NCBI GenBank assembly: GCA_949289145.1
Contig: CASEML010000051.1
Coordinates: 2,306-66,305 of the forward strand
DNA length: 64,000 nucleotides
Direction of reading: 5' to 3'
Origin: an uncultured Eubacteriales bacterium
GTDB taxonomy: Bacteria; Bacillota; Clostridia; Lachnospirales; Lachnospiraceae
Under the pieces are notes generated by a model. The model did no database searches. It was not told the origin of the DNA and worked only from the letters and a program-made list of their open reading frames with translations. Below are positions 7,101 to 60,425 of this stretch, piece by piece (within the stretch, counting starts at the first letter, position 1; each line of letters starts with the position of its first letter). The translations under genes and the position numbers were made by a program.

Positions 7101-10100
7101 TGTGCTGCCATCGGCATAAGTTGTTTGCTGCAGCTTTCCATTTGGATAATAAGTATAGTCCGTACTTTCTCCTTTTGCATCAGTTGTTTTTATTATGTCT
7201 CCCCGCTTATTGTATTGGTAGGAAACAGTGTGACTGTCTTCATCGGTTTCGGTGAGTACCCTGCCGGCTTTGTCATAAGTGTAGGTTTTTGCGCTTCCAT
7301 CCGGGGCTGTCTGTTTTATTACATGTCCTTCCCCATCTTTTTCGTATGTAAGCTTTTTGCCGCCGGCATCTTCCATGTAGGCAAGTTCTCCGTTTTTATC
7401 GTAGCCATATTTCGTTGTATTCCCCTTAGCATCGGTGACAGTGGTCTGGTTGCCGTCTTCATCATAAGAATAAATAAGGAAAGAATATACCTTGTCATCA
7501 TCCTGCATTATCTCTTGTTTTATTTGACGATTCAGGGCATCATAGGTATATTTCGTCACCAGTCCCGTACTGTCGGTCACTTTTGTCAGATTTCCGATAA
7601 CATCATACTGATAAGCACATGCATTGCCATTCATATCAGTAAGTTTTGTTAAATATCCCTCGGTATATTCGTAATACTTTGTTCCCAAACCTTCGATGGT
7701 TTCTTCGGTAAGCTGTCCCTGTGGATTGTATGTATACGTTACTGTTTTTCCTGAGCTATACTCTGCTCTGGTCATCAGGTTTTTCCGGTTATAAGTATAG
7801 TGTGTCTGATTACCGTTTCCATCTGTGACCTGTGTCAGATTATTTGCCTGATCATAAATCATCGTGGTAATAATGCCATAACCATCGGTAATTCTTGTCT
7901 GATTTCCATTTTCATCGTAACTGTAGTAATAGACATTTCCCTCTGCATCCCGAAGGGATAGAAGATTCCCTCTGCTGTCATACATAGATACTTTTGTCTG
8001 TCCTTCTCCGTCAGTGGATTGCAGGATATTGCCGCTTCTATCACTTACGATGGTTTCTGTGGCTCCGTTTCTGTCAGTAATGACGGTGGTTAAACCGCCA
8101 TTTTTTTCCTCGGTATATGCAAATCCTGTGTAAGCTTCTTTTGCATCTTTTTGCAGAATAACTCTTCCCTTGCTGTCATACTGGTTGGTTACTTTAGTAA
8201 TACCGGCGGGACTTATTTTACTCAGAATATGTCCTGCACTATCATAGGTATAAGTTGTTGTTTCACCTAATGGGTTGGTAATGGCAGTTAAGCATTGATT
8301 TTCATATGTGAATGTTGTGGTACGACCTGTGATATCACTGACACTTATTAAATTTCCTACTTCATTGCAGTGCAAATACAGGCATGCTTTTGTGGCTGTT
8401 TCCATGACCGTGATAAGCGTGTTTTGAGTTCCTTCCTCTATGCCATAGTCTAATGTCAACTCTCTCTTATTCTGATCTGTCATTTTAACAAGCTTACCCT
8501 TTGTGTTAAAATCATAGACTATGCCGCTTGACAGGGTCAAGGTATAAGTTAAATCTTCTTTTCTCTCTAACCGGGCATTTTCCATTCCTGAGGAAATACA
8601 TAAATAGCTCTGCTTATTTGGCAGTTCATCCGCCAGTGCAATTTTCCCTGCCTCAATGTAATTACCATACACCGCACTGTGAGTGACTGCTTCCTCCCTT
8701 ACAAAAACAGAACAAGCATCCGGCGTCCAATATAGATTTACAAAACCGCCCTCATCCTTTAAAAATGCCTGGAAGTTGTGACTCCATCCTCTTCCCATTT
8801 CTCCCGGAGTATCGGTAAGTAATGAACTGTAATTCATATCCAGTGACAAAGTGGACACCCCGTTTACAGCCAATGCTTCATACTCCTCTACAAAGGCTCC
8901 GCTGGTTGTATCTACCGGATCCCCCCATGTGGTATCAGCTGCTGATTTATGCTTTACAATACTTACAGATGCATGGCTGCTTATAGGGCTTACCATGACT
9001 TTCACCCCTGTATTGGCCCCTTGAAGGGTATCCACATAACTATCTACTAACTTAAAATAATATTCTCCCTCGTCGTATTCCCCACTTCCCTGTGGCGCTG
9101 CCATGACAGTGGTTCCATACAAGATGTCTCCCGGTGCAAACACACCAATTTCTAAGATATCGCCTTCATAGAGTACCGGTATGGTTTTGCATTTGCCTGC
9201 ATCGGCAATATAATAATTATTCTCCCGGTTTTCTATGATGGTAACTTCTCTTGTTTCTTCGTCTATGAGCTTTTGGGAACTATATTTTCCTGGCAGGGTA
9301 TAGGTGCCAAAGGTGGTAGTTACGTTATAAAAAGTTCTATTTGAAGTATTGGTCAGTTCGTACTGAATGTAATAGGATTCTCCCACATATGCAGCATCTT
9401 CAGGTTTGATCGTTAACTGCAGTCCTTCTCCAGTCTGCACATTAACATCGCCGGAAAAAACTGCCTTTACCTGTTTTTCAAATGGCATTAAAGTACCTTC
9501 AAAATCTGCAGATATTTCATAATTTCCCGATGCATCTCCTTTTATATACCAAAGAGCAGAAGCAGACTGCTGTCCGCTGATATTTCCTAAATCTATGGTT
9601 TCATTCTGGGTTTTTGAATTTAATTGCGCAAAGGACAAGCCTTCCGGTAAATTTAATGTAGCACTGGAATCCTCCAGGACAAACTTTGGTGCCGCTGCAT
9701 TAATAACGCCTAATTCTACGGTAAACATTTCTTTCAGCCATGAAATATTTCCTGCATCGGTAAGATATGCCAACAACGGTACTGTTTCATCTTTCTGCTC
9801 CACCGGAATCGGATAAAAGGTCACCGATGTCTGTTTCGCGGAATCAATGCCGGAACCACCCCCGCTTCCCGTGCTTATCACCTGACTGGTAGTGGTTCCA
9901 TCTCCTGCCACGGTTACTTTATATTCCACCGGAATCGGAGATTCTGCAAAAGCCAAAGTCAGAGCGTAGGTAAAAGAATTGTAATTGCTTGGATTGGTTA
10001 AGTCAATTCCTGCCTCAACCATATCTGCCAATTCCATTTTTTTCACTTCCAGATTTCCCACAACCACTTCGCCTGCTTCTAGGACCAAAACTGCTGCCTT

Positions 10101-13016
10101 ATCCTTTCCCTGCTCCATATTCACGTACTTTTCTGTGGGAAGATAGTTCTGCTTATAGGCGGCAAACCGATAGGTTCCGCCCTCACCGCTGACACAGACT
10201 CTGCCTGCTACGTCTGTCACCAGAGTCTGTCCTGTATTGGCGCTGTTATCATTTACGTACACATAAGCATTGGACAACGGAAGATTATTCTGGTCTACCA
10301 CCTGTATGGTAATGGTTCCTGCCTTGGATTTTTCATAGATAACAACTGTTATCTCCGCCGAATCTGTATTTCCGCCCACATCTTTTACGGTTAATACTAC
10401 CTTATAAGTACCGGGCTTTTGATATGTATGCTTTGGTTGGGCTCCTGTTAAGATGCTTCCGTCTCCCATATCCCAGATATAATCTGTGATTCTTACATTA
10501 TCTGTGGAACCGGTACCGTCAAAAGCAAGCTCCAGACCTACTACACCAGACATATCTGTAGCTGCATAAGCGGTAGGAAGAATGGTGTCCTCACTGTCTG
10601 CAGCAGCCATCGTTATTTCACTCTTGCTGCTGTTTCCATAGAAATCATAGGTCATAAGATAATACTCATAATCTGTTTCCGGCGTAATGTTTTTATCTGT
10701 ATAGAAAATATCTGTTCCTCTCATAATGCGAGTATACTGTGTTTCATCATACGCTTTTCTAAACAGTTCGTAATAGCTAAAATCCTCTGCATCACAATTA
10801 GTCCATGAAAGATCTATCTGCCAGCTTCCTCCCTTAGCAGCCAACCGGGAGGCTGACGGTGAATCTGTATCCAGTATAAAACTGGTAAAAAATACTTCAC
10901 TTTCGTTGTCATTTATATCTTTTGCTTCTACCTTTACATGATAGGTACCACTCTCCAAACCACTGCTGTCCCAGTTTATAGCAACCAGCTTTTCTTTTGC
11001 ATTCACAGTTACCGTATCCAACTGTATCCATGTGTCACTGCCTTCCTTCTGATACTGGGCTTTCACCTGAGCTACTTTTACATTATCATAAACTAATGCT
11101 TTGATAACTGTATCTCTGCCCACGATTTCACCATTTCTTGGAGATACACTGTAAATAGTCGGCGCTTTATTGTCTTTTGCTGCCTCCGCTTTTGCCTCAT
11201 TGGAAACCTCGCTTTCATTTCCAGCTAAATCTACAGAAGTAATCATGTAGCAATAGGTATGGTCGTATTCAACGCTACTGTCGTAGTAGTTAGAATTTGT
11301 GCATTTATCAACCAATACCTGATATTCTCCGTCTTGACTTGACCGATATATTCTATAATAAGCAGTATCCTCCTCCTTGGGCGCTGTCCAGGTCAACGCT
11401 GTATATCCTTCCAAGCCTTCTACCTTTAAATCGGTAATGGCGGAAGGTGCTGTGCGGTCTATTAAATAAGAATTTGTGAGAATTCCATTTTCAAAGGCAT
11501 TTTCGTTACCTGCTTTATCATATGCCCTTACTCTTACATAAACATTTCCCTCCGACAATGCTGAAATGTCCCACTGATAGGAAAAAATATTAGTTGTGGA
11601 AACATTTCTTTCTACTTCTGTAAGCTTTTTCCACTCTTTTTCGTCTAAAGAATATTCAAATACTACCTTCACTGCTCCAATATTGTCAGTGACAGTGACA
11701 GACAGCGGAATAATGTCTTTAAAGTTTTTTGCTGCCGGCAAGAAACCGGAAATTACCGGCGGAGTTATATCTGATTTTGTACTAATGATTATGTCCTGAG
11801 ACTCTTCTCCACGGTTCCCTAAATTATCATAGCCTACCACACGAAAGGTATATTCTGTATCCGGAGTAAGACCAGTAATATGCATTCCGAGCACATCAGT
11901 GACAGTCCCTACACTTACAAAACCCTCTCCCTTAAACTGTTCTACCTGAAAATAAGCAAAATCTGCCTCTGTTACATCTTCCCATTTTAAGCTTACAAAG
12001 GAAGCATCAGAGGTTGCCTCCGTGATATTAATTTTATCTATTCCAGTGTTATCTAAGGTATATGTTCTGGTATATTCCTCCACCGAACGGTTGTCACTGC
12101 TGTCTATGGCAATGGCGCGCACCAAATAATCACCGTCAGGCAGATCTGAATTGTCCCACACAAAGACTGCTTTTCCATCTGTAGAAGCCTTCTTTTCATC
12201 AATGAGAATCCATTGTTCTCCTGCCTGATACTCCAGCCGAATAGAAGATACTGCCGTATCGTCATAAGCACTGATTGTTATCTGGCTATCTTTATTGATT
12301 TTGCTTCCTTTTGACTGAATACTCTCGATAATTGGCGGAGTAATATCATTATTTTTCCTTTGTTCCAGATATTCATATAAGTCGCCATCATAGCATTTAA
12401 AATCTTTAAAGTAGATTCTGGCACCCATATGGGCACCTCCGCCAATACCAAAATAGTATCTGTCATCCACTGTACTATTGGTAATTTCTTTACTTTTTGC
12501 CCGCAAAAAGAAACTTCCATCTGCACCTTGCACATAATGATAGAAATACCCATCATTCTTTTTTACTAATAAATATGTCTGATATTCATTTGTCAAAAAA
12601 ACTGTTGCCTGTCTACCGCCATAAGTTGATGATTTGTATTGGTAAGAAAAGTAACAATGACCTGGCACGTCTCCTTTTGCAGTAAACAAAAAAGAAATTT
12701 CCTGATTTGCCTCTTCTAATTTTCTCTGTTTCATAAAATAAGAGGAACTTCCTGCTAATGCTGTCTTTTCCATCACCTTTACATCGTCTTCGATAGAAAC
12801 CAGCCCTGCATTTTCCCACGAAAAATATGCATCGTCCCAACCGGACCAGTCTTCGTTGTCATCCTCATAGGCCCATTCGATATCCTCGTATTCCATATTT
12901 GCTGCAGCATATGTCACAATTAGTTCTAAATCAACACTTTCACTAACCAAAACTAGCATTAAAAGTATGGCTGTTATTCTTTGTATTATTTTTTTCCATT
13001 TTCTTTTTATCTTCAT
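4149..13016 (-). CDS. Secreted RHS/YD-repeat polymorphic toxin (WapA-like) with a C-terminal HNH (colicin-DNase-like) nuclease module
   Basis: 2955 aa. The N-terminus is signal/TM-like (KKIIQRITAILLMLVLV). Next come alternating Ig-like and FN3-like modules of about 90 aa, then a PKD-like module (FDGTGSTDNVRITDYIWDMGDGS...HTYQKPGTYKVVLTVKD) and a CarboxypepD_reg-like module. Dozens of YD repeats follow (YxYDxxGN/R). The RHS core ends YYMRARYYNVSIKRFINQDVV...NKFAYVQGNPIKLTDPFGL, followed by a 300-aa tail ending IHEMHPVKFGGSPTDIDNKIALSPKEH. Confidence 0.93.
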   Translation of the reverse strand: MKIKRKWKKIIQRITAILLMLVLVSESVDLELIVTYAAANMEYEDIEWAYEDDNEDWSGWDDAYFSWENAGLVSIEDDVKVMEKTALAGSSSYFMKQRKLEEANQEISFLFTAKGDVPGHCYFSYQYKSSTYGGRQATVFLTNEYQTYLLVKKNDGYFYHYVQGADGSFFLRAKSKEITNSTVDDRYYFGIGGGAHMGARIYFKDFKCYDGDLYEYLEQRKNNDITPPIIESIQSKGSKINKDSQITISAYDDTAVSSIRLEYQAGEQWILIDEKKASTDGKAVFVWDNSDLPDGDYLVRAIAIDSSDNRSVEEYTRTYTLDNTGIDKINITEATSDASFVSLKWEDVTEADFAYFQVEQFKGEGFVSVGTVTDVLGMHITGLTPDTEYTFRVVGYDNLGNRGEESQDIIISTKSDITPPVISGFLPAAKNFKDIIPLSVTVTDNIGAVKVVFEYSLDEKEWKKLTEVERNVSTTNIFSYQWDISALSEGNVYVRVRAYDKAGNENAFENGILTNSYLIDRTAPSAITDLKVEGLEGYTALTWTAPKEEDTAYYRIYRSSQDGEYQVLVDKCTNSNYYDSSVEYDHTYCYMITSVDLAGNESEVSNEAKAEAAKDNKAPTIYSVSPRNGEIVGRDTVIKALVYDNVKVAQVKAQYQKEGSDTWIQLDTVTVNAKEKLVAINWDSSGLESGTYHVKVEAKDINDNESEVFFTSFILDTDSPSASRLAAKGGSWQIDLSWTNCDAEDFSYYELFRKAYDETQYTRIMRGTDIFYTDKNITPETDYEYYLMTYDFYGNSSKSEITMAAADSEDTILPTAYAATDMSGVVGLELAFDGTGSTDNVRITDYIWDMGDGSILTGAQPKHTYQKPGTYKVVLTVKDVGGNTDSAEITVVIYEKSKAGTITIQVVDQNNLPLSNAYVYVNDNSANTGQTLVTDVAGRVCVSGEGGTYRFAAYKQNYLPTEKYVNMEQGKDKAAVLVLEAGEVVVGNLEVKKMELADMVEAGIDLTNPSNYNSFTYALTLAFAESPIPVEYKVTVAGDGTTTSQVISTGSGGGSGIDSAKQTSVTFYPIPVEQKDETVPLLAYLTDAGNISWLKEMFTVELGVINAAAPKFVLEDSSATLNLPEGLSFAQLNSKTQNETIDLGNISGQQSASALWYIKGDASGNYEISADFEGTLMPFEKQVKAVFSGDVNVQTGEGLQLTIKPEDAAYVGESYYIQYELTNTSNRTFYNVTTTFGTYTLPGKYSSQKLIDEETREVTIIENRENNYYIADAGKCKTIPVLYEGDILEIGVFAPGDILYGTTVMAAPQGSGEYDEGEYYFKLVDSYVDTLQGANTGVKVMVSPISSHASVSIVKHKSAADTTWGDPVDTTSGAFVEEYEALAVNGVSTLSLDMNYSSLLTDTPGEMGRGWSHNFQAFLKDEGGFVNLYWTPDACSVFVREEAVTHSAVYGNYIEAGKIALADELPNKQSYLCISSGMENARLERKEDLTYTLTLSSGIVYDFNTKGKLVKMTDQNKRELTLDYGIEEGTQNTLITVMETATKACLYLHCNEVGNLISVSDITGRTTTFTYENQCLTAITNPLGETTTYTYDSAGHILSKISPAGITKVTNQYDSKGRVILQKDAKEAYTGFAYTEEKNGGLTTVITDRNGATETIVSDRSGNILQSTDGEGQTKVSMYDSRGNLLSLRDAEGNVYYYSYDENGNQTRITDGYGIITTMIYDQANNLTQVTDGNGNQTHYTYNRKNLMTRAEYSSGKTVTYTYNPQGQLTEETIEGLGTKYYEYTEGYLTKLTDMNGNACAYQYDVIGNLTKVTDSTGLVTKYTYDALNRQIKQEIMQDDDKVYSFLIYSYDEDGNQTTVTDAKGNTTKYGYDKNGELAYMEDAGGKKLTYEKDGEGHVIKQTAPDGSAKTYTYDKAGRVLTETDEDSHTVSYQYNKRGDIIKTTDAKGESTDYTYYPNGKLQQTTYADGSTILYSYDKCWNLTRITQSDGASTTYEYDTVGNLICIRDALGNENHYEYDIYGRLLTETDPMGAVTSYTYDSEGNCLSKTNGLGETNSYKYDTENRLTTVTHLNEEGKEVKIQYIYDKYGRNTKVIDECGNTAAMTYDENGNVVTVTDAKGITIETYSYDNANRLTSATDALGITDIYHYDIMGSLTKYTAQAGESTEEITKYFYNADGSLAKAEDAESGISVCQYDENGNLTTVTDPMGGTTAYSYDKLNRVTKEINAVGSEHSYSYNNVSLLEKYINANEEETNYTYDKAGRLTKVTDKAGTISYTYDKNGNIIEVKDEKGSITRTYDALNRVTGCTDTDGNTIRYSYNAMGSLSELTYPDGTVVTYHYYDNGKLKSVTDADNHTTTYEYDGNGLLTVRKNGNGTTDIYTYDDAGQLITQQVKKGTELLSETCYTYDEAGNIVKRQSSSGEGAIGNINSVTMTYDSANRLVTYNGEAVVYDAEGNMTYGPDAEGSMTEYIYNCRNQLIQAGNISYEYDGEGNRIARTNMDTGERVRYIYDTNSELPQVLQEVGTDGSITYVYGNGLLTQNSENEYFCFHYNNIGSTILLTGAGGEKEETYSYGAYGELLSGDRSKTSYLYNGMYGVCTDLNGLYYMRARYYNVSIKRFINQDVVDGAITASQSLNKFAYVQGNPIKLTDPFGLSPNISISGIGHAALNLLGILPGLDICDAINAAWYLAEGDYANAAISTAAILPMLGSMAGNGIKWGARGAANAEKVSDTIKLGARIAGDGGALLLSGNQAMEAVKNISANYRETGEVFSFRNAGNFLSLGLSVAGMGLSGVSLSKSGAALKNMHQGKAVAESAAVSSATKRVSGKADGTGKRELYVPVNLQFFGKSGSNTVKTGEFFIDDWNGYPDAPKPDGPFRILEGTEYTDSRNLANKTNANIHRNRPDLKGTQIHEMHPVKFGGSPTDIDNKIALSPKEHAKYTAFWNKVLREQKGK

Positions 13017-17425: not shown

Positions 17426-20233
17426 CTATACAAAATCTTTTTCTTTTAATATCATATAATGTTCACTGTCATACTTTTTCCGAATTAAAGTACCAAGCAT
17501 ATTTTTTAAAGTTTTCTTTTGAGCATGTTCTATAGCCGCATCCATCATTTCTTTTACATCAACAAGAGATGGGATGATATCCGTTTGAAACTGCAATTCT
17601 GCTAATCGGCTGTACAATGCCAAAACTCCCATATCATCTATCTTACAATCATGTTCCAGCGCATATGATTTTGCAAATGCAACTAAGTCTGCGTTCGTAT
17701 ATGGGGGAAGGTCAATCTTTGCTGTAAATTTATTTCGGAAACCGTTATCTGCCTCCAGCAACTTCAACATTCTCTCTCTGGTATCTTCAATAATCACCAA
17801 GATAGTCTCCGTAGTTTCATCCAATACTTTAGAAAAGTTATGAATTGTTTCCATATTCATATCTGCTGCCTTTTCTATAATAAGTACTCCACCGGCCGCA
17901 CTTGCCGCCACAGATTCCGCATCCTTGTGATTCATGGCTTCACCTGTAATTCTTGCCACCTTGTTTCCCTTCATATTTTTGGACTTTTTAGCAGCCTTTA
18001 TAATATCTACCGCAAGCGTTGTCTTTCCTGTGGCAGAATCACCCATGATCACAATATTTCCCTTATCTGATATTTCATCAATGCTTTCTAAGGCACTTAA
18101 AATCTGCTCACTTACTCCGTCAATTTCTGTAAAATATTTAAAAATACGCTTGAAGCTTTCAGCATCTGCTTCCATTACAATTGGAATTTCTTCTTCCTCA
18201 TCTCCGACAATGCTTTCAATTCCTTCCGGCAGTCCTGCGGACAATTTCGACTCCAATTCTTCCACAGCATCTTCATCTTCCGGTTCTTCTTCCTTGCCAA
18301 ATTCGTCTAGTTCATCCAATTCTTCCTGTAAATCCTCTGCTGCTTCTTTCCTGTCCCATGCTGTATAATCTGTCTGATTTTTTTCCGTATCAATCTCTGC
18401 AGCCTTATCCTCCGTTCCTTCTAATTCCGGGCTTGATTCAGGCTCAGCCACACTGGACTTGTCAGATTCCTGTATTGCTTTCAGTGCCTCCTGAGCTTCT
18501 TTCATTATGACATCTTCTAAATCTCCAAATTCATACTGCATTTCTTGTAAATTATTTTCCGGCTCAGACTGAACTTCTTCCCGAATCTCTCCCTCAAATT
18601 CTGGCTGAATTTCCTCTTTCACCTCAGTCCGTAATTCTTCCTGTAAATCACCTTCTGCTTCCTGCTCCACATGGTCTTCCATTTGTTCAAAAATATCGGT
18701 TTCCTCAATGATTGCCTTTAAACCCTTATCGTGATTCTTATCCGTTTCTTCAGAAAGTTCCCGATCTTCCATCATTTTTTTCATTTCCTCAGAAATAGTT
18801 GGAACCACATCTGCCAGACGGTCCATAATATCCTCTGTTTCTGCAATTGCCTTAGCTTTTGCTTCTTTCAAAGACTTCTGTTTTTCTTCCTCTGCCTCCG
18901 CTTTGATTCGTTCCCATTCTTGAAGAACTTCTTCAATGCTCATCTGTCCGGTAATTTGTTTTTCCATAATATCTTCATCTGGAACACAAATAGATATCTG
19001 CCCATCACTGTCTTCTGAAAATATCTTTTCATATTCGTTTTCTGTCTGTGTATCTATTTGTTCTTCTTTTTCTTTCTCTATGATTTCAGTTTCCTGTTCC
19101 GGCTTCTGGGCATCCTGTAATTTCCCTTCAACTTCTTTGACTGGAATAATTTTAGTAGGAGCATCTGCAATATGAATAATAAATTCTTTGGTCTTTTCTA
19201 AATCCTCTTCCGGTTCTTCTTGTTTTTCCGTATCGCCCACCATTTCTGTATTTCTATTAACAGAAGTAATCTGACCCATAAGTTTTGCCGCTTCTGCCAT
19301 AACATTAGCATCTTCCTGGGCTATCTCCGGTTCGCTGTCATCCACATTTGGCAATTCTTTCGTTTCTCCTGTTTTCTTTTCTTCCATCAATCCGTCGATC
19401 TTACTCTCCTGAACCAGCTTCTTGATATTGTCCATTGTAGTATCCACTGTTTCTTTCTCCGTAGCCTCCAGAATCTGCTGCATGCTCTTTGCCAGCTCTT
19501 TCTGTAAATTTACGGTATCGTAGATTCCATAATTCATGGGCTTTACATTGATTTCCGGTTTCTCTTCCATAGCTTTCTCTGCAACAGCTTCTACTGCGGC
19601 AATAGACTTTTCTATCTGAACATCATTTCGGCTGTCGTACTTTTTCTGCTGTTCTTCGTTCAATGGCTGATAAAGCATTTTTAGTTCCATTGCTTTCTCA
19701 ACGTACTTTCCTTCCGCAAACCATAAAATCAGTTCATCGCATTCTGCCACACACTGTTCACTCATCCCTGCTCTGTGATACAGATACGCCAACTCAAACG
19801 CCCATTTTTCCACATACTCATGACGCTTGAATTCTTCCAATACCGCAATTCTCTCCTTCAACCCTACTTCCTGAGCCTCATAAAGCTTGTACTGCAAAAT
19901 ATATCTTCCGGTATCCCTTGGAGCTACTTTGACAAATTCCTTATAATATTCCACTGCATCTATGTATTCCTCTAAACGTATAGATAATTCTGCCAGTGAA
20001 TAAATAATCATTCGTCCATACGGATGCCTGTCATAGGCAATCAACATAACATCCCGGCTTTCCTCCAGCATGTCATTTTTCTCATATATTTCACCAATAA
20101 GACAGAGCATAGGGATACTTCTCACACGATTCCAGTCAATTGTATTAGCAATTTTCATTGCAGATACATAATCCTCCTGCTCTGCCAGCTTTCTAATCTG
20201 TTCTGCTTTTATGCGATATTCATATTTATCCAC
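17426..20233 (-). CDS. TPR-like N-domain / long acidic low-complexity linker / SpoVK-CbbX-like P-loop domain protein
   Basis: 935 aa. The N-terminal roughly 200 aa are helical repeats. Roughly aa 280-680 are Glu/Asp/Lys-rich. The C-terminus has GNIVIMGDSATGKTTLAVDII (Walker A) and GGVLIIEKAADM (a Walker B-like site without the DE pair). Confidence 0.6.
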   Translation of the reverse strand: MDKYEYRIKAEQIRKLAEQEDYVSAMKIANTIDWNRVRSIPMLCLIGEIYEKNDMLEESRDVMLIAYDRHPYGRMIIYSLAELSIRLEEYIDAVEYYKEFVKVAPRDTGRYILQYKLYEAQEVGLKERIAVLEEFKRHEYVEKWAFELAYLYHRAGMSEQCVAECDELILWFAEGKYVEKAMELKMLYQPLNEEQQKKYDSRNDVQIEKSIAAVEAVAEKAMEEKPEINVKPMNYGIYDTVNLQKELAKSMQQILEATEKETVDTTMDNIKKLVQESKIDGLMEEKKTGETKELPNVDDSEPEIAQEDANVMAEAAKLMGQITSVNRNTEMVGDTEKQEEPEEDLEKTKEFIIHIADAPTKIIPVKEVEGKLQDAQKPEQETEIIEKEKEEQIDTQTENEYEKIFSEDSDGQISICVPDEDIMEKQITGQMSIEEVLQEWERIKAEAEEEKQKSLKEAKAKAIAETEDIMDRLADVVPTISEEMKKMMEDRELSEETDKNHDKGLKAIIEETDIFEQMEDHVEQEAEGDLQEELRTEVKEEIQPEFEGEIREEVQSEPENNLQEMQYEFGDLEDVIMKEAQEALKAIQESDKSSVAEPESSPELEGTEDKAAEIDTEKNQTDYTAWDRKEAAEDLQEELDELDEFGKEEEPEDEDAVEELESKLSAGLPEGIESIVGDEEEEIPIVMEADAESFKRIFKYFTEIDGVSEQILSALESIDEISDKGNIVIMGDSATGKTTLAVDIIKAAKKSKNMKGNKVARITGEAMNHKDAESVAASAAGGVLIIEKAADMNMETIHNFSKVLDETTETILVIIEDTRERMLKLLEADNGFRNKFTAKIDLPPYTNADLVAFAKSYALEHDCKIDDMGVLALYSRLAELQFQTDIIPSLVDVKEMMDAAIEHAQKKTLKNMLGTLIRKKYDSEHYMILKEKDFV

Positions 20234-21135: not shown

Positions 21136-21860
21136 CTAATTGTTTGTACTTTTCTGACAATTTATTTTTAAAAGATTGAGGACTAAAACGGAAGCAATGG
21201 CTAAGATAACTGCTAGCACCATTCTGACAATAAATTGTAATTCTGGCAAAAAGGGTATAATAAAATTTGGAAGATTTGCAAAAGTATGTGCAATAATAGC
21301 AGGATATAACGACTTTGTTTTTGCAAAAATTATTCCAAAGCAAATACCCATTAATGTTGCCACAATAGTTAGCCACAACCCCCCAGCCATTAAGTGTGCA
21401 AGACCAAACATAAGCGAACTTACTAATACAGCCACCCAAGTAGGAAAACTTTTCTTTAATTTATTTAACATAATTCCACGGCACAACACTTCTTCCATCA
21501 CTGGCTGTACCACTAAAAGCGTTAAGCCCATCATTACCACACCAAATCCCGGAATTATATTAGAATAAAACATAACGCTTCTTTTCATTTGTTCATCATT
21601 TGCAAATGATAAATCATATGTAATAAATGCCCATGCAAATGAGAATAAAAATGCTGCCAAAGCCGGATATATGCATAATTTAATTTTTATAGGTACGATG
21701 CTCCACTCTTCTTTTACGTTTTTTTTTTACGAATTTTTATAAATAATGTAAAAAGACCAGTAGCAGCTACAGATATAATTGTCATAAGAAATAGATGGTT
21801 CATACTAAAATCTATTAAATCGCTTTCCGTCTGGATCCCTGATATGACACCGATTATCAT
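21136..21860 (-). pseudogene. CPBP (CAAX/Abi) family intramembrane glutamic endopeptidase, reading frame broken at a homopolymer
   Basis: The intact C-terminal ORF 21136..21660 carries EEVLCRGIM, FGLAHL and HTFAN motifs. The TM-rich N-terminal part (MIIGVISGIQTES...LFTLFIKIRKKK, ATG 21858-60) is in another frame. The frames join at a T10 run (21719-21728). Confidence 0.6.
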
Positions 21861-21952
21861 AAATGCTATTTGAACTGCCAATTACAAAATAAAATATAAC
21901 CCAAAGTAAATAAAAGATTCCAGAACATTTCTCATTCCCACTTTACCTCCTT

Positions 21953-24900
21953 TTATGCAAATTCCAAACTATTCTGCTCAAAGCTCAACGATGTATATTC
22001 AAGTTCATCCTGCTCTGTCTGGCTGCGGTAGTCCACTACTACGGTCTGCTGTCTTCCGTCGATGAGTTTTTGTCCCAGTATATAATTCACTTCAAATCTT
22101 GCGGTTATGGCTGGAGTGGCACCTCTTGCCGGAACGATCAGCTGTACATTATTGGCTTTCAGGAGCTTAAAGATTGGTTCCCAAATGTATACATCTTTTG
22201 CCGCTCCAAAAGGATTGTCAATGAAAATTACATTTTTCAGCTTCAAAGGATCTGCGTTGGCAGAGTTCATGCTAGTAATATAATGAATGATGGCTACTAA
22301 GAACTGAATGTAAATACCCTGAGACTGTCCTGTACTTCCCACAGCTTCCTCATACTTTAAGTAGCGGCTCTGTTCTTTTATACGTTCTCTCTTATAAAGA
22401 TTTAATTTGATTAAATTCATGTCTTTTACAATAACAGAGAACAGCTTTTTCCATGCCAGCTGGCTTCTGATATATTTCACTCGCTCTGCCTCTGTGGCAA
22501 AACTATCGGCAGTCTGAATAATATGGTCAATATAATCTGACATAGCAGACGCATACATTTCTTCTTTAATATAAGGGATATTTAGGGTAATCATAGGTAC
22601 CAGTTTATCATCCAGCCAAATTCCCGATAGTTTGGGTAGTCTGTCTAAGGCTGCCTTCATATTAACGCAGGTTTGCAGACATTGACTTTCAAAATTCTGT
22701 TTTATTTTCTCCATGTCAACAATACCCTTTTCCACACCGGATTTTTCCAGTTCAATGCAGGAGATGGTATCTTCAATATTTGCTATTAACATATCTGCCT
22801 CTGCTTCATTGGAAGGGCTTTCAATACGTTTTTCTACTTCATTTGCCAACTCATAGGCTTGTGTCTTTAACAATGTTTCTTTCAGGCGATTTTTATCTTT
22901 TTCAAAGGCTTCCCTGCGCTGGTATTCCTCTTTCATAATCTTATCATAAAGGGTTCGAAGTTCTTTATAAGTCTTCTTTAAGGAAGTTTCATCCTCTAAA
23001 ACTCCCTCTTCACCTTCCATTATGATGCCGGCGGATTCTATCATGCGAATCATATCTTCACTGATGGCCTCTAACCCTGCCAGTTCCTTCTCTATCTGTT
23101 TTTCTTTTTCCATGGATTTTTTTATATTATTGTCAATCACCTGTGCCAGATTTTTGTACTCGCTGATAAATCTTGTAAGCTGCTCGCCGGACAGTTCAAG
23201 GGGCTGGTACCTTCCATATTTTTCTTCTACCAGAGTTTTTCCATGAGCGATACTTCCAAATTTCCGATTGGCAGATTCTGCATAAGCCTCCAACTTCCTT
23301 TTTGTAATTTTAATTTTTTCTTCTACTTCCCGGATTTGTTCTTTTTGGTATTTTAATTCTTCCAAACTCGTTCTCATCATTTCATGGCGTTCATATATTG
23401 CCTTTAATTCCTCCAAGTTTCCATTTCTATATTCAATGGCAGAAATACACTTTTCCATTTGCGCCTTATAGTTTTCCGCCAGCTTCCTCTTGTCTGCAAT
23501 ATCAACATTTTCTGCCACAAAATTATCCCGCAGCCCCATAAATTTTATTTCCAATTCTTCCATAGATAAAGTGCTCAAAGAACTGTCTGTGAGCACTGTC
23601 TGCTCTTTGTAATATGGCTGAAATTCTTTTTCCCATATGTCCTTTCTGTTCTTTAAGATGGTTTCCATGCCCTGATACCTTTCTCTCAGGGTGCCTATAC
23701 GTTCCCGTAAGGATTTCAACTGGTTGCTATAATCTTTTAGGACTGTCTCTCTTTGGGAAACTGTTTCTTTTAAAACTGTTAATTCTCTTGCTTTTGAACT
23801 GTAATGACTGTATAATTCCTGGATTTCTTCTATTATCTTTAATTCCTGCTCCACACTTAGCAGTTCTGCTTCCTGTTTGTCTTTATATTCCTGAAACTGA
23901 TTCTTCTTGTTATACAAGTTATTTTGCTGTGCCTGAAGGTTGTCTGTTTCTGCTGCAATATCTTTCAGTTTTAATTTGTTTTCTTCATATTCTTTTACGT
24001 TATCTGGCTTTTCTGTCAAATATTTGCTCTCAAACTCTTCCATAAATGAAATATCAGATTTTATAAATTCTGTGCGCTCTCTCAATACCATAAGTTTTTT
24101 CTGCTTTTCTTCCAAATCCTCCATGACGGATTTCAACGCCATAGACAAACTGTCTTCAGAAGTAAACTCAGACTTTTCTGTTGTCAAAAAATCTATCAAC
24201 TCTGTGGAATACAGTTCAGTCAGTGATGTCTCCAGTGCTTTCCCATTGATCACAGGAACCACTTTCCCTGTATTTCCAACCTTTTTTAAATTTTTATCAA
24301 ATCTGACGGATTCATAATCCTGCAGAACCACAATAGCATAAGGAAGTAATGGAACAATCTCCAACAACTCTTCCTGCTGTTCCTTCTCATATCTTTTTAG
24401 ATAAGAATATCCTGTGACCGCGCGCTCTTTTCCCACATTTATAATTTCTAATGTTTCCTTCAATTCCTGGGAATCTGCGAATAATTGTCCTTTTTCATAA
24501 GCTCTACATTTTGTCTTTAACCGGGCAATTTCCTGCTTTAACATTTCTGCTTCTATCAGACTATTCTGAAAAGTATAGTAAATCTTCCCCTTTAGCTGAC
24601 GCTCTTCGGATTCTTGGTAAAAATCTTTCAGCTTATCGATTTTTTCCCGATATCCACTGTATTCTTTCTGAAACTCTGCCAACTTTTCCTGTCGAAGCAG
24701 CAGTTGTTTTTCCTGCTCCTTTAAAATATTCAGGCGCAAACGGTTGGCGGAAATGGTTTCATCGGTCTGCTTTTCCTCCTGATGCACATTCTGTCTGCTT
24801 TCTGTCAGTTCCTTTACTTTCTGCTGTAATTTCCTTACTGCGGCACCGGCTTCTTCGTAAAGCAGCAGTGAAGTTTTCTGTTTTAATGCTTCCAATCGTT

Positions 24901-26371
24901 TTAGCTGATAGGTGCTGTCTTCCTGCAGCAAATGTATTTTGCTCTTCTGAAAGGTACTCTCTGATTCTTCCTTTTGTAATTTTTCTTTCATCACATTTTC
25001 TTCTGCTTCTTTCTCCCGGCACTGGGTCTTCAATACAGCCATGTGTTGCTGTAATTGCTGTCGTTGTAATTCTTCCAGTTCTTTCCACTGTTTTGCCAGG
25101 CACTGTAAAGCAGATTCCATATCACTTCCCGACTGACTGGTATGCTCGGAAGCAATTTTTGCCGCCTGATATTCCTTTTTATAGTCCAGATAATCCAAAT
25201 AATCGTTGGCGTTTTCCTTTAACAAAAGCTTTTTCTGATAACTGGATAATTCCTGCTCAAAGGAGATTAAAATCTCTTTGGTGTTCTTGACACTTTCATC
25301 TAATTTCTGCAGTTCCTCCTGCTCTATCTGCACCATAGCCGTATCAATCTTAGCCTCTTTTTCCTTTTTTTCCAGCAACAACTGCTCCCTGTGGGCCAGC
25401 AGATTTTCTCTCTGACTTTTCTGCTGCTCCATAGACTTGCTGCAGGTATTATATGTATAGATAAATTCCTTTTCAATACCTCGTTTTTTGTGGTACATAC
25501 CCTTTAAAGACTGAAGTCTTGCAATAAAGCTGTTTAATATTTCTATCTGTCTGTCATAATTGGCAATGTCATTTTTCTTTTTTGTCAGCTCCACTAATTT
25601 ATTCTTAATATCCAAAAGAAGCTTTGCAAAATCTGCTCCTTGTCCGGTGGTATTGTAATAGGACTTTTGAAGGATTTCTTCGATCAATAAATCCTCCACC
25701 ACTTTTCTGGTAGTCTTATAATTTGTTTCAAAATATGTACGCACATGACCTTCTGTCTTGTTGATACCACGAATGATTTCCCACTCGCTTTCATAAATGC
25801 CATAGTTGCTGATAAACTGCTGATACTCACCTTTACGTTCAAATATTTTTATAATAAGACTGTAATCTTTATGTTCTAAATCCTTTAAGTAATTTTTCAA
25901 CCCATGGTAAGTAATCCTCTCTTTACCGTTGCTCAAAGGAAGATTCTTAATATCATTGTCATTAAATTCCCGGTAAAATATCACATAATTAAAATATTCA
26001 ATAGACGCATTCTCCCGCTGCTGTGTTTCATCCAGGCTGTTTTCCTTTGCTTTTCTGGCACAGAAGCCTGTGGTCATATACTTATAGCCGTTCTTCACAT
26101 CATCACTGTTTAACTTCCATTCAATAAGAGAGTGAATGGTGCTGCTGCCGCTTCCGGTGCGGAACAGCTTTTCTATGGGCTGCTTTTCATCTAAAGTACA
26201 ATTTGGGATCATGTTTTGTAACAGAAGCAGCATCAGCACACTTTTTCCGCCGCCGTTTGCCAAATCGTAAATGGTATTTTTTCCGGAAAAACGCATGATA
26301 AAGTCATCATAAAATTGTGTTCCAAAGTTGTATTTTACATTATTTACGCGAATTCGATTAATATGCGGCAT
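21953..26371 (-). CDS. SMC/MukB/JetC-like ABC-type ATPase with a very long coiled coil
   Basis: ORF 21953..26437; the likely start MPHINRIRVNNVKYNFG (ATG 26369-71) overlaps the upstream stop by 14 nt. Walker A is DLANGGGKSVLM (26237-60). More than 1000 aa are K/E/L/Q-rich heptad-like sequence. A central non-coil segment reads LLPYAIVVLQDYESVRFDKNLKKVGNTGKVVPVING. The C-terminal head has GSTGQSQGIY (signature-like) and VIFIDNPFG (Walker B-like). Confidence 0.75.
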   Translation of the reverse strand: MPHINRIRVNNVKYNFGTQFYDDFIMRFSGKNTIYDLANGGGKSVLMLLLLQNMIPNCTLDEKQPIEKLFRTGSGSSTIHSLIEWKLNSDDVKNGYKYMTTGFCARKAKENSLDETQQRENASIEYFNYVIFYREFNDNDIKNLPLSNGKERITYHGLKNYLKDLEHKDYSLIIKIFERKGEYQQFISNYGIYESEWEIIRGINKTEGHVRTYFETNYKTTRKVVEDLLIEEILQKSYYNTTGQGADFAKLLLDIKNKLVELTKKKNDIANYDRQIEILNSFIARLQSLKGMYHKKRGIEKEFIYTYNTCSKSMEQQKSQRENLLAHREQLLLEKKEKEAKIDTAMVQIEQEELQKLDESVKNTKEILISFEQELSSYQKKLLLKENANDYLDYLDYKKEYQAAKIASEHTSQSGSDMESALQCLAKQWKELEELQRQQLQQHMAVLKTQCREKEAEENVMKEKLQKEESESTFQKSKIHLLQEDSTYQLKRLEALKQKTSLLLYEEAGAAVRKLQQKVKELTESRQNVHQEEKQTDETISANRLRLNILKEQEKQLLLRQEKLAEFQKEYSGYREKIDKLKDFYQESEERQLKGKIYYTFQNSLIEAEMLKQEIARLKTKCRAYEKGQLFADSQELKETLEIINVGKERAVTGYSYLKRYEKEQQEELLEIVPLLPYAIVVLQDYESVRFDKNLKKVGNTGKVVPVINGKALETSLTELYSTELIDFLTTEKSEFTSEDSLSMALKSVMEDLEEKQKKLMVLRERTEFIKSDISFMEEFESKYLTEKPDNVKEYEENKLKLKDIAAETDNLQAQQNNLYNKKNQFQEYKDKQEAELLSVEQELKIIEEIQELYSHYSSKARELTVLKETVSQRETVLKDYSNQLKSLRERIGTLRERYQGMETILKNRKDIWEKEFQPYYKEQTVLTDSSLSTLSMEELEIKFMGLRDNFVAENVDIADKRKLAENYKAQMEKCISAIEYRNGNLEELKAIYERHEMMRTSLEELKYQKEQIREVEEKIKITKRKLEAYAESANRKFGSIAHGKTLVEEKYGRYQPLELSGEQLTRFISEYKNLAQVIDNNIKKSMEKEKQIEKELAGLEAISEDMIRMIESAGIIMEGEEGVLEDETSLKKTYKELRTLYDKIMKEEYQRREAFEKDKNRLKETLLKTQAYELANEVEKRIESPSNEAEADMLIANIEDTISCIELEKSGVEKGIVDMEKIKQNFESQCLQTCVNMKAALDRLPKLSGIWLDDKLVPMITLNIPYIKEEMYASAMSDYIDHIIQTADSFATEAERVKYIRSQLAWKKLFSVIVKDMNLIKLNLYKRERIKEQSRYLKYEEAVGSTGQSQGIYIQFLVAIIHYITSMNSANADPLKLKNVIFIDNPFGAAKDVYIWEPIFKLLKANNVQLIVPARGATPAITARFEVNYILGQKLIDGRQQTVVVDYRSQTEQDELEYTSLSFEQNSLEFA

Positions 26372-27074
26372 CTTCCTGCTCCTTTCCCTGAATGATCTCG
26401 TAAAGTCTTCCCTTAGATTCTTCAAAATAATTTTCAATCAATGCCCTTGCCCTGTCTTTTAAGTAATATCTCTCCTCTGACTGTGCCATTAATTTTTGTG
26501 AAATCAGGAAATTTAGCACTAACTTAATGTAGCCTGCTTTGGAATTTTTTACGGCACGAATGGACTCCTCTGTGGCTGCCGGCAAATCACTCCACATCAT
26601 TGCCAGTGTCTTAAAGCTGTTTTCCTCTGTTTCCTTGTTGGTGAGAATTTCCAAATTATCAATTATATGCTTTAAAGAATAATCTACTGTTTCCATAATG
26701 TCTTCAATTTTCACGTACTCATTAAAATTGTATCCTGATGAATCTGTATAAAAGCAGGTAATGATCTGATAAATAATGAAATAACAAAGATACAATTCTC
26801 GATTCACCTTTAATCCCAGCTCTTTTCTCAAATCCCCATTGCTGAACCCAAAAGCCTGATTGTTATCTCCGGCAGTAATATAAAGGCAGTAATTGTATTC
26901 ATAAAGCTTAATATTCATACGGTTAAGCATACGGTTTACCAAATCATAGACTTGAGCATTGGTGCTGTATGCTTCGTACAATGAAACATTTGCTCCGCTG
27001 TTCCTCCCCACTTCTTCTCCGTCTAATAATCTGGTCAGTATATCAATTGCTTTATCTAAATTTCTTTCTTCCAT
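26358..27074 (-). CDS. MukE/MksE/JetB-like small subunit (putative)
   Basis: 238 aa with an acidic C-terminus. Its start overlaps the upstream gene by 19 nt and its stop overlaps the SMC-like gene by 14 nt. Size and position match the middle gene of MukFEB/JetABC operons. No motif-level proof. Confidence 0.45.
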   Translation of the reverse strand: MEERNLDKAIDILTRLLDGEEVGRNSGANVSLYEAYSTNAQVYDLVNRMLNRMNIKLYEYNYCLYITAGDNNQAFGFSNGDLRKELGLKVNRELYLCYFIIYQIITCFYTDSSGYNFNEYVKIEDIMETVDYSLKHIIDNLEILTNKETEENSFKTLAMMWSDLPAATEESIRAVKNSKAGYIKLVLNFLISQKLMAQSEERYYLKDRARALIENYFEESKGRLYEIIQGKEQEDAAY

Positions 27075-28606
27075 GATTCATCCACCTTTTCAAACTGAAT
27101 ATCTGATATCTCCAACATTTCCGTAATTTTCACCGTCTCTTCTCCTTTGGGGATCAAGCGAAAACAAAGCTCATCATAATCACTTTTTCTTTCCAGTATT
27201 TCATGAACTATTTCTTCAAAAAAAGTATCCGGCTTTTGGCGGATTTCTCTGACAGAATAAGTATTCTTCTGGCACATATGCACTAAAAATGTATAATAGT
27301 CTGCATTTTTCAGCACTCTTTCTCCCAATCTTTGTATCAATTCCTCATTGAACTGATGAAGCGTAAAAGCCTGTTCTCTTTGGAGTTTTTCAAAAAGAAT
27401 TCTCACAATCTTATGAAAATTGCCGCTGATTCTCTCTTCCTCTAATTCATCTTCATATACATACGCCGCTTCCTCACCTTCTGTAACAGTTTCTGTTTCC
27501 TCTTGATTTTCCGCCTTCATACTAAGCAAATTTTCTGTCAGAACAAAAGAAAACTGCTTTTTCACATTAAGCTGAAGCAAAGGCAGGATTAATGCTTCCA
27601 TTGCCTCGACGTTATCTTTTTCCATCATCTGGTTCATGGCATGATTGAAATCAAAGGAATTACGCAGGGTACTTAACTTAGACTTTTTCACTATTTCGTC
27701 TGCCTGAAGCTGTAAGTCGGTACATAGAGAAAGCAGTTCACTGTGCTTATACATAGCCTTTTTGATTTCCAATTCCAAGGTATATATTTCATCCATCATA
27801 GCAAAAAAGCGCGCATTTTCTTTTCCCTTTTTATCCAGCTCAGCTTTCTCTAATGCCTTCTCTATTAATTCGCTGTTTTTCTTAAACAGTCTCTGTTCCT
27901 CATCAAACCATTTTGTAATATCATTTATATAAGCTTCATATACCTTTTTCCCTTCAAAAACATCTGCACTAAGTATCGCCAACACTTCATTTCGCCTTAA
28001 CTTTAATTTATTCACTTCCCGATTGATCCTCTTTACCACTTCAATGCCGCCCTTAAAGTTTTGAGTATCAATTAACTTGCTTAACAAAAGTTGTTCCACA
28101 CTAATGCTGCTTTCTTCCTTAATTTCTTTGGTATCTAAATAAAACTCTATAGCTTCAGAAGTTATTCTATAGAATAAATTACTGTCTATAATTCTGCTTT
28201 CAATTAATTTCATGCGAATGGTTTTCTTCTGATGATCTTTGGGGTCAAAATAATCAAAGGAAAACGGTTTCCCCTCATTGAGCAATTTATCAAATAAGTA
28301 GGCACACAATTCTTTTTCTTCCTCCTCAGCAACCTTTAACTGAAAATCCCTGACTAAAATGGTGTGCAAAAAGCTTTCATATTCCTGATATGCAACATCT
28401 TTGTCTTTTAGATTGTTCTCGTCAATGAAAAACCGCAGTACTGCCATGGTTATGTAGCCCATATCCAGACAAGAATATTTTCCTTCTTTCCATTGCAGCA
28501 GGGAATTGTCCGCCAGCTTAAAAAACGGATAGTATTTCTTTATATTTTCAATTCTCTCTTTGTGTTCCTGTATGATGTCCTGCATCATAATATATTCTTC
28601 AGTCAT
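27056..28606 (-). CDS. Kleisin-like MukF/MksF/JetA-like subunit (putative)
   Basis: 516 aa and helical, with an acidic flexible linker ENQEETETVTEGEEAAYVYEDELEEER between N- and C-terminal domains. GAGGAG SD precedes the start. It is the first gene of the coupled trio. Confidence 0.45.
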   Translation of the reverse strand: MTEEYIMMQDIIQEHKERIENIKKYYPFFKLADNSLLQWKEGKYSCLDMGYITMAVLRFFIDENNLKDKDVAYQEYESFLHTILVRDFQLKVAEEEEKELCAYLFDKLLNEGKPFSFDYFDPKDHQKKTIRMKLIESRIIDSNLFYRITSEAIEFYLDTKEIKEESSISVEQLLLSKLIDTQNFKGGIEVVKRINREVNKLKLRRNEVLAILSADVFEGKKVYEAYINDITKWFDEEQRLFKKNSELIEKALEKAELDKKGKENARFFAMMDEIYTLELEIKKAMYKHSELLSLCTDLQLQADEIVKKSKLSTLRNSFDFNHAMNQMMEKDNVEAMEALILPLLQLNVKKQFSFVLTENLLSMKAENQEETETVTEGEEAAYVYEDELEEERISGNFHKIVRILFEKLQREQAFTLHQFNEELIQRLGERVLKNADYYTFLVHMCQKNTYSVREIRQKPDTFFEEIVHEILERKSDYDELCFRLIPKGEETVKITEMLEISDIQFEKVDESWKKEI

Positions 28607-28678: not shown

Positions 28679-29029
28679 TTATTTGTACATTGGACACGTT
28701 CTCGTTCTCTTGGTATTGCAATCCTGAATACGTCCCAGAGAACAGCTTACCAGTTCGCCTTTTAAGAAACAAAATCCATTTTTTTCTTCTAAGTTTTGTT
28801 TCTCTTCTTCTAACGGACATTTACTTAATTTCTTTGTCATACAATCCAAAACACGTCCCGGAATACAGTCTACCAAATCACCTTTCACACAGCAAAAAGG
28901 CCGCGTCTCCTCTTTTTTAGCTTCTGCCTGCAACGGACATTCCCTAACTCTTTTAATGTTACAGTCTTGAATACGTCCCGGAGAGCAATCCACCAATTCT
29001 CCTTTTAAAAAACAAAATCCCTGTTCCAT
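28679..29029 (-). CDS. Small protein made of three tandem Cys4 repeats (C-x8-C-x7-C-x7-C-P)
   Basis: ORF 28679..29038; the ATG giving MEQGFCF (29027-29) follows AAGGTGA. The repeats are GFCFLKGELVDCSPGRIQDCNIKRVRECP, PFCCVKGDLVDCIPGRVLDCMTKKLSKCP and GFCFLKGELVSCSLGRIQDCNTKRTRTCP. Confidence 0.6.
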   Translation of the reverse strand: MEQGFCFLKGELVDCSPGRIQDCNIKRVRECPLQAEAKKEETRPFCCVKGDLVDCIPGRVLDCMTKKLSKCPLEEEKQNLEEKNGFCFLKGELVSCSLGRIQDCNTKRTRTCPMYK

Positions 29030-58768: not shown

Positions 58769-58780
58769 TATTTTTCTCCT

Positions 58781-59873: not shown

Positions 59874-59889
59874 TGTTTCACGTGAAACA
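59874..59889. promoter_or_regulatory. parS site (perfect 16-bp palindrome)
   Basis: TGTTTCACGTGAAACA matches the Firmicutes parS consensus tGTTNCACGTGAAACa. Confidence 0.88.
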
Positions 59890-60001: not shown

Positions 60002-60017
60002 ATGTTTCACGTGAAAC
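60002..60017. promoter_or_regulatory. Second parS site, embedded in a longer palindrome
   Basis: TGTTTCACGTGAAACA sits inside GTTTCATGTTTCACGTGAAACATGAAAC (59995-60022). Confidence 0.88.
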
Positions 60018-60425
60018 ATGAAACACTTATTTTTTCTGTAAGTGTTCTCCCTTATACATATTCCCTAAGCTCGTCCTAGATTATCCCAACAATCAGCCTC
60101 AATAAATGGTTTTTGTCCAAGAAGGTTCATAGACTCTGTACTTTTCTTGATAATACTTAAGTCCTTTCCAATTTCACCTATTTGTATGCAGAATAAAATT
60201 GAGTAGAAGGGGATGGCTAAGTTCAGTCCTCTCACACCACCGCTTATGCACTTCCGCAAGCGGCGGTCAGATTGTTTAAATATATATAAATTTCTTTGGT
60301 ATAGCTTTGGATAGACTTCCTTCAGATTCCATCTCACAATGGACACCCTTGTGACTGGCTGTAAGTTTCTCACTATCAGGGCACTTCACAAACTTACACG
60401 ATTAGATTATGCCCGTGCTGGGCAA

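Follow-up and report, generated by a model that had tools for sequence, protein, structure and literature searches.

A three-gene operon related to the Wadjet plasmid-defence systems has been analysed on contig CASEML010000051.1, which comes from an uncultured bacterium of the family Lachnospiraceae. The operon spans positions 21953-28606 on the minus strand of a 64-kb source window (the whole stretch of DNA that was analysed, to which all coordinates refer). It encodes a kleisin, a KITE protein and an SMC-like (structural maintenance of chromosomes) ATPase, called here JetA, JetB and JetC after their Wadjet counterparts. The gene for the nuclease JetD, which defines Wadjet, is absent from this locus and from every orthologous locus examined. 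The analysis covered 64 kb of this genome and, for each related locus, flanks of at most 10 kb on either side. The genes of the operon and the motifs of their products are the following (aa, amino acids):

27056..28606 (-): jetA-like kleisin gene, 516 aa
27431..27523 (-): acid-rich kleisin linker, residues about 362-392, sequence KAENQEETETVTEGEEAAYVYEDELEEE
26358..27074 (-): jetB-like KITE gene, 238 aa, Pfam DUF6063
21953..26371 (-): jetC-like SMC-family ATPase gene, 1472 aa
26237..26260 (-): Walker A of JetC, ANGGGKSV in translation; its K is invariant, canonical type III JetC included
about 24167-24439 (-): hinge-like non-coil segment of JetC (LLPYAIVVLQDY...VVPVING), between the two arms, roughly 90 aa
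22316..22339 (-): signature-like motif of JetC, GSTGQSQG in translation; kept in 144 of 144 family members
22205..22231 (-): Walker B of JetC, VIFIDNPFG in translation; D-N-P-F rather than D-E

The three genes, all on the minus strand, are translationally coupled. The overlap between jetA and jetB is of 19 nucleotides (nt; 27056-27074) and that between jetB and jetC of 14 nt (26358-26371, ...GAAGATGCCGCATATTAA). Both were read directly in the sequence, and they agree with the coordinates and overlaps given in the preliminary description of this DNA. At its full extent the open reading frame (ORF) of jetC covers 21953-26437 and opens with TTG. The true start is placed at the ATG at 26371, giving the N-terminus MPHINRIRV, because this sequence is conserved family-wide and is recognisable in canonical type III JetC.

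Subunits of the complex

The 516-aa protein had been described as a kleisin with an acidic unstructured linker, and both family membership and predicted structure agree. It matches the PADLOC model JetA3 PDLC00560 over residues 1-509 (E 5e-204), with weaker matches to five other JetA3 models. Its AlphaFold2 (AF2) model, with a mean predicted local distance difference test score (pLDDT) of 76.6 (58 sequences in the alignment), begins with a winged-helix region at the N-terminus, continues through a helical bundle and a disordered acidic linker, and ends in a winged helix at the C-terminus. When this model was compared with the PDB by Foldseek, the five best matches were all MukF (9gm9_D at E 6e-4, then 9gm7_D, 3euh and 3rpu). 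The disorder of the linker (pLDDT<50 at residues 346-354 and 362-379) coincides in part with the acid-rich stretch. Relatives of JetA form at least 1022 clusters at 90% identity.

The 238-aa protein, proposed before to be MukE-like, belongs to Pfam DUF6063 (E 1.3e-44) and to PADLOC JetB3 PDLC00571 (E 8.7e-95). Its AF2 model (pLDDT 80.4, predicted template modelling score 0.77, 68 sequences) has the fold of a KITE protein: the six best Foldseek matches in the PDB are all KITE proteins or MAGE-type relatives, among them the E. coli Wadjet JetB (8as8_C), the Nse1-Nse3-Nse4 complex (7dg2_A), MukE (3rpu and 7v8p) and MAGE-G1/NSE1 (5hvq_C). A lack of kleisin or KITE similarity, which would have spoken against an SMC complex, is therefore not what was found, since the folds match MukF and KITE proteins.

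The 1472-aa protein is matched by PADLOC JetC3 PDLC00581 over residues 1-1471 (1664 bits). Walker A lies at one end of it, and the signature-like motif and Walker B lie at the other, with coiled-coil-like arms and a central non-coil segment between them; these elements had been pointed out previously, and all were found at their placed positions. The motifs of the head are conserved in 143-144 of 144 family members. When JetD-less and canonical type III JetC are compared, two residues of the hinge-like segment, G654 and P706, never vary, and four more (P674, L676, P677 and Y678) hardly do. No CxxC motif (the zinc hook of Rad50/SbcC) occurs in the whole 1472-aa protein, in line with the earlier view that it is not of the Rad50/SbcC type. 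A profile of the JetC family matches solely coiled-coil proteins (myosin, tropomyosin and the arm of SMC3), at about residues 260-650 and 740-1200, and Pfam gave no matches with the separate head and hinge pieces. Architecture, motifs and family membership together point to an SMC-type protein. Its relatives form at least 1696 clusters at 90% identity, with lengths nearly all of 1454-1489 aa.

More unusual is the Walker B motif. The sequence DNPF does not vary among the type III JetC proteins examined, whether they are linked to JetD or not (loci L019, L020 and L021 included), and it is considered a family trait and not a defect because it is common to JetD-linked type III JetC. For the same reason, an ATPase inactivated by the D-N Walker B has been ruled out. 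The catalytic base of type III JetC must lie elsewhere than at the usual Walker B position, or the chemistry of hydrolysis must differ.

Because all three proteins are full-length members of the PADLOC type III Wadjet families, the operon does not represent an undescribed SMC family, which had been one of three options proposed for it; in the DUF6063/JetB3 tree it is placed beside JetD-carrying operons. Several further type III models of PADLOC gave weaker matches. The seeds of PDLC00560, PDLC00571 and PDLC00581 in PADLOC-DB v2.0.0 were probably drawn from the JetD-less clade, because the fit is end to end and the scores are very high. In the whole-library Pfam scan, DUF6063 was found for the KITE protein only, while the kleisin and the SMC protein had just sub-threshold matches to unrelated families. 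The NCBIfam scan of the three proteins returned no SMC-complex family, and PDB sequence searches with each subunit, and with JetB and JetC profiles, retrieved no SMC-complex protein, including type I/II JetABC and MukBEF.

Absence of jetD and descent of the operon

The published representative of type III Wadjet is a B. thuringiensis system. Distant relatives of JetC were also found by tblastn in five plasmid records, of which three were examined: Bacillus mycoides plasmid p481, a Pontibacillus plasmid and Clostridium perfringens pJFP838A. All three have the order jetD-jetA-jetB(DUF6063)-jetC, and their JetD proteins (339-351 aa) match PADLOC JetD3 (1e-92 to 1e-99) and Pfam JetD_C. As a correction, jetD of type III systems is found upstream of jetA and not downstream of jetC. 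The operon studied here shares with type III Wadjet the JetA3, JetB3/DUF6063 and JetC3 families, the A-B-C order, the translational coupling and similar sizes, as well as the DNPF Walker B and the hinge motifs. On the other hand, it is without JetD, whereas the canonical operon starts with a Toprim/JetD_C gene of 340-375 aa. Its identity to the plasmid examples is low (17-19% for JetC and 12-24% for JetB), and it shows housekeeping synteny and apparently vertical inheritance where the others are found on plasmids or in variable accessory neighbourhoods.

That no JetD nuclease is encoded nearby had been noted before, and an ORF scan, tblastn and a six-frame profile search all confirm it. With PADLOC and Pfam models, none of the 32 other ORFs of the window was of the JetD/Toprim type, and tblastn with canonical JetD gave nothing at E<=1 in the window and roughly 100 orthologous loci. 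The window and 116 loci were translated in six frames, and all pieces of 40 aa or more were searched, with all filters off, using a JetD3 hidden Markov model (HMM) built from seven outgroup JetD proteins. The model matched solely nine outgroup jetD genes (E<=1e-114), and the next best match was at E=0.68. The orthologous loci came from species-representative genomes (18) and from metagenomes (80 of 435 matches), and several were obtained by exact-protein look-up. JetD is absent, even as debris, from the window and from about 105 orthologous loci. An adjacent jetD in the orthologues would have made of this locus an ordinary Wadjet with a local deletion; none of the orthologues has one, and such a deletion is not the explanation because the absence is common to every orthologous locus examined. 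Since the defining nuclease has been tested for and is absent, the locus is not a Wadjet as defined.

An exhaustive search with JetB yielded DUF6063 proteins in 225 representative clusters, of which 15 were at E<=1e-30. In a neighbour-joining tree of JetB, all JetD-less loci form one clade. Directly outside it branches the JetD-carrying P0402; the contig of the branch after that, P0411, is too short to show whether jetD is present. Relatives with at least 43% JetB identity are without jetD, including two at 43% itself, L105 (tatD-ksgA-jetABC) and L109 (dnaX-ybaB-recR-jetABC). Among relatives at or below 36% with enough upstream sequence, jetD is present; it lies directly upstream of jetA in those at 36%, 33%, 33% and 31%, and their neighbourhoods are unrelated and variable (agr and LytTR genes, a HepT/MNT toxin-antitoxin pair, a PLD-family gene). 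Altogether, jetD is upstream of jetA in seven of seven informative outgroup lineages. One loss of jetD would be the most economical reading of this distribution.

The JetD-less clade is very large and has been seen solely in Lachnospiraceae-type bacteria. After removal of redundancy at 90% JetB identity, it contains 27 lineages. Its JetC and JetA clusters are nearly all nameless or annotated as hypothetical, and the organism names shown are almost all of Lachnospiraceae; cultured carriers include Anaerosporobacter mobilis, A. faecicola and Diplocloster agilis. Full-text literature searches on DUF6063, on JetABC in Lachnospiraceae and on JetD-less systems found no description of this clade.

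In 13 lineages, JetA, JetB and JetC show pairwise identities that rise and fall with those of RecR and DnaX (Spearman 0.81-0.91; RecR versus DnaX, 0.91). This co-divergence indicates that the JetD-less operon has probably been inherited vertically. With respect to close relatives, the divergence of the Jet proteins is also on a par with that of the flanking pheA and trmB. The ratios of nonsynonymous to synonymous substitution rates (dN/dS) are 0.050 for JetA, 0.031 for JetB and 0.066 for JetC, values typical of strong purifying selection. No relatives were found in the viral contigs of IMG/VR with the peptide patterns that retrieved the 435 metagenome loci. As far as sampled, the operon appears to be a functionally constrained chromosomal one and not a mobile defence island.

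Gene neighbourhood

Other features of the window to which reference is made below are the following:

28679..29029 (-): Cys-repeat protein gene, 116 aa; 72 nt upstream of jetA, in the canonical jetD slot
21136-21934 (-): interrupted gene for a CPBP (Rce1-like) membrane protease, downstream of jetC
17426..20233 (-): gene for a TPR/acidic/AAA protein, 935 aa; conserved downstream neighbour and candidate partner
57839-59557: parA-parB, with rsmG at the window end
59874-59889 and 60003-60018: two perfect parS sites (TGTTTCACGTGAAACA), just upstream of parA-parB

The two parS sites, parA, parB and rsmG, at 57.8-64 kb, place the window near the replication origin. The jetABC operon is 31-38 kb away from these elements, which agrees with an earlier estimate of about 32-38 kb from parS. 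In the same window there are two very large ORFs (4149-13016 on the minus strand, 2955 aa; 49658-54889 on the minus strand, 1743 aa), and sortase, transglutaminase-like and AAA_3 (MoxR-type) genes are found between 41 and 50 kb; these suggest cell-surface protein or pilus loci.

The commonest arrangement among the related loci is (pfkA)-dnaX-ybaB-recR-jetA-jetB-jetC, followed by a TPR/acidic/AAA+ gene, and the region continues to yaaL-bofA, as in other Firmicutes. Of 81 loci, 47 have recR as the gene immediately before jetA, as do 13 of about 24 lineages, and the gap is mostly of 5-36 nt. A 4-nt overlap of the two genes takes the place of the gap in the lineage that branches earliest (L109:2119-4226). 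Counting this lineage and 13 others (e.g., L015, L031 and L050), the two genes either overlap by 4 nt or are separated by 5-36 nt, so that jetABC looks like the tail of a dnaX-ybaB-recR operon. In the commonest arrangement RecR (HhH/zinc-finger/Toprim) fills the canonical slot of JetD, and it does so in L109 as well.

Downstream, 21 of 24 JetD-less lineages have the TPR-AAA gene in first or second place after jetC, irrespective of the upstream context; a search of six JetD-carrying outgroup loci found it beside none of them. Its 935-aa product in the window consists of an N-terminal TPR region, a long acidic low-complexity region and a C-terminal AAA domain, similar to CbbX, SpoVK and EccA, with an atypical Walker B (NCBIfam spore_V_K, E 4e-9, and CbbX, E 6e-8; CbbX in the PDB, E 1e-3). 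In homologues the acidic region is of 300-700 aa, and its length differs among lineages (e.g., L031:15115-17478).

The remaining neighbours vary. The broken CPBP gene and the upstream Cys-repeat gene of the preliminary description are both present. The CPBP gene consists of a 17-codon ORF, stop codons, an A10 run near 21715-21725 and then a 174-aa ORF; the interruption could stem from a frameshift, an error in the assembly or phase variation, and the gene lies between jetC and the TPR-AAA gene in the lineage of the window only. The 116-aa protein is made of three repeats of ~37 aa with the pattern F-C-x-x-K-G-x-L-V-x-C-x-P-G-R-x-x-D-C-x-x-K-x-x-x-x-C-P. It has Cys at 11 of 12 pattern positions, 13 Cys in total, a dN/dS of 0.075 and no Pfam, PADLOC or NCBIfam match. 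Its gene is upstream of jetA solely in the sub-clade of the window (L001-L007 and L024), and given this restriction and the lack of a family match it has been rejected as an effector. In Anaerosporobacter-type lineages, a protein of 780-860 aa is encoded directly upstream of jetA (L009:5808-8144; L010, L011, L014, L016, L030 and L054). It has also been rejected as a substitute for JetD, in view of a weak N-terminal match to cyclic nucleotide monophosphate (cNMP)-binding domains, no PADLOC match and tblastn results at chance level; no further domain was recognised in it. Other upstream contexts are pullulanase with the Cys-repeat protein (sub-clade of the window), rhomboid, aconitase and TatD/KsgA. 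Together with the iron-containing alcohol dehydrogenase (Fe-ADH) and alanine symporter genes, the rhomboid, aconitase and TatD/KsgA neighbours have been rejected as parts of the system and are considered ordinary genes.

Possible function and significance

The identity of the subunits, the loss of JetD, the single clade, the synteny, the co-divergence with housekeeping genes and the purifying selection have been shown. On balance, and with moderate confidence, we favour the explanation that the operon encodes a domesticated, nuclease-free type III Wadjet motor, which would extrude or entrap DNA without cutting it and serve chromosome or replicon organisation in the manner of MksBEF or MukBEF. 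One clade would have lost jetD once, settled in an origin-proximal position downstream of dnaX-ybaB-recR and descended vertically through Lachnospiraceae-type bacteria. By analogy with type I JetABC and MukBEF, JetC would dimerise via its small hinge, and the JetA kleisin would bridge both ATPase heads and bear a dimer of the JetB KITE protein. Two such complexes would probably pair through the N-termini of JetA. ATP-driven entrapment and loop extrusion of DNA would follow and, as no nuclease is present, the captured DNA could not be cut. The likely job would be to organise, compact or help segregate DNA, that of the chromosome and possibly of other replicons, like MksBEF and MukBEF, which organise chromosomes. 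Both the loop extrusion and the cellular role of the JetD-less complex are thus argued from better known relatives. Type I JetABC without JetD has been shown to hydrolyse ATP and to extrude loops with no cleavage (10.1101/2024.02.17.580791). Moreover, it has been explicitly hypothesised that MukBEF and MksBEF originated from Wadjet systems domesticated through the loss of their nuclease (10.1101/2025.03.10.642339), and that loss is proposed as the step locking a former Wadjet into chromosome segregation (10.1101/2025.03.10.642339, section 11).

Comparison with other SMC complexes gives a mixed picture. Like MksBEF without MksG (e.g., in Pseudomonas aeruginosa), which according to the literature is thought to work on the chromosome through loop extrusion, the operon comprises three kleisin, KITE and SMC genes and no nuclease. 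It differs in that no sequence-level family membership was found in the Pfam and NCBIfam scans, and in that the clade stems from the type III branch and is fixed across one bacterial family, whereas MksBEF has been described as scattered via horizontal transfer. With MukBEF of the gamma-proteobacteria, whose partners are MatP, topoisomerase IV and AcpP, it shares a kleisin whose best PDB matches are MukF, a KITE protein with MukE among its top matches, a small hinge segment (not of donut size) and long arms; sequence similarity is not detectable, and the phylum is different. The likeness to Smc-ScpAB is limited to the general SMC/kleisin/KITE architecture. The match to TIGR02168 SMC_prok_B (E=0.96) is far under the cut-off, there are no SMC_N, SMC_hinge, ScpA or ScpB matches in Pfam, and the kleisin is MukF-like, with an N-terminal module of the dimerisation type.

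Several points weigh against domestication. The JetB tree is a single neighbour-joining tree without support values, and for this reason the single loss of jetD is not taken as proven. The identity correlations have been drawn from non-independent pairs. Searches with the head of JetC found no similar sequence among SMC, MukB or JetC structures or in Pfam, and the Walker B of JetC is without the usual glutamate, although this is likewise the case in JetD-linked members. In addition, an unlinked JetD or another effector is possible elsewhere in the genomes, beyond the parts seen, and a core-genome location under purifying selection is compatible with a conserved defence role.

The last two points lead to the strongest alternative, in which the complex still serves in defence against plasmids or other episomes, either by a non-cutting action (compaction, silencing or mis-segregation of small circles) or with the aid of an unlinked nuclease. 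Non-cutting action on small circles has been proposed for Smc5/6, and type I JetABC alone senses and fully extrudes circular DNA. The closest relatives of known gene content are JetD-linked Wadjet operons, and each genome is visible only in part. Against this, jetD is adjacent to and upstream of jetA in all seven informative outgroup lineages, so that unlinking would be unusual. Stable dnaX-recR synteny, housekeeping co-divergence, dN/dS of 0.03-0.07 and neighbours that are not those of a defence island do not favour it either, and we regard a defence role as unlikely, while still a serious contender. Among the three options proposed initially, the Muk-like condensin is hence the one best supported by synteny, RecR/DnaX co-divergence and low dN/dS; the Wadjet-derived defence module is less likely, and the distinct SMC system has not stood.

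A further alternative is that JetD has been replaced by new partners, namely RecR and the TPR/acidic/AAA+ protein (the latter as a loader, an unloader or a DNA-mimic regulator), which would yield a replication- or repair-coupled SMC machine. It would account for the TPR-AAA gene after jetC in 21 of 24 lineages, often within 12-160 nt, and in zero of six JetD-carrying outgroup loci, as well as for the short gap or 4-nt overlap between recR and jetA in most lineages. Both neighbours may, however, simply be remnants of an ancient gene order, as the region recR ... yaaL-bofA is a classic one in Firmicutes. The operon is also intact away from recR (in the window, L086 and L105) and with no TPR-AAA gene nearby (L086 and L109), and JetD3 has no sequence similarity to RecR. 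The Toprim domain of RecR is not known for nuclease activity, which counts against RecR as a replacement of JetD. Such a replacement appears improbable. The related claim, that the motor has gained RecR and/or the TPR/acidic/AAA+ protein as partner and that a dominant gut family thus expresses, from its dnaX-ybaB-recR operon, an SMC machine of a hitherto unknown kind coupled to replication or repair, is doubtful indeed. Finally, an ordinary type III Wadjet with a local jetD deletion, or a decaying remnant of one, fits the membership of the subunits in type III families, but it is refuted to near certainty by about 105 orthologous loci, from at least 27 lineages below 90% JetB identity, all without jetD or fragments of it, and by the purifying selection (dN/dS 0.03-0.07) on three intact genes that keep their motifs.

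Nuclease-free Mks operons are already known, and the kind of system is therefore not new. What is new is a JetD-less variant that is derived from type III, family-wide, apparently vertically inherited and recR-linked, and that has JetD-carrying relatives and cultured carriers. One practical consequence concerns genome annotation: the thousands of gut-metagenome matches to PDLC00560, PDLC00571 and PDLC00581 should not be scored as Wadjet immunity, because the system is without the effector despite its JetA3, JetB3 and JetC3 matches. If domestication is the right explanation, the operon may be an example from nature of a defence machine that has come to serve chromosome maintenance. The proposal that MukBEF and MksBEF arose from Wadjet rests on very old and highly diverged systems; the JetD-less clade looks like a separate case of domestication, from the type III branch and within the Firmicutes, and it offers living JetD-carrying relatives, a single inferred loss and fixation beside dnaX-recR. 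With cultured carriers, it becomes testable which changes would make a plasmid-killing SMC complex harmless and useful to its own chromosome, whether the complex coexists with or replaces Smc-ScpAB, and whether cleavage would be regained on re-addition of JetD. The clade is thus a concrete test case for the hypothesis that Wadjet systems can be domesticated into condensins.

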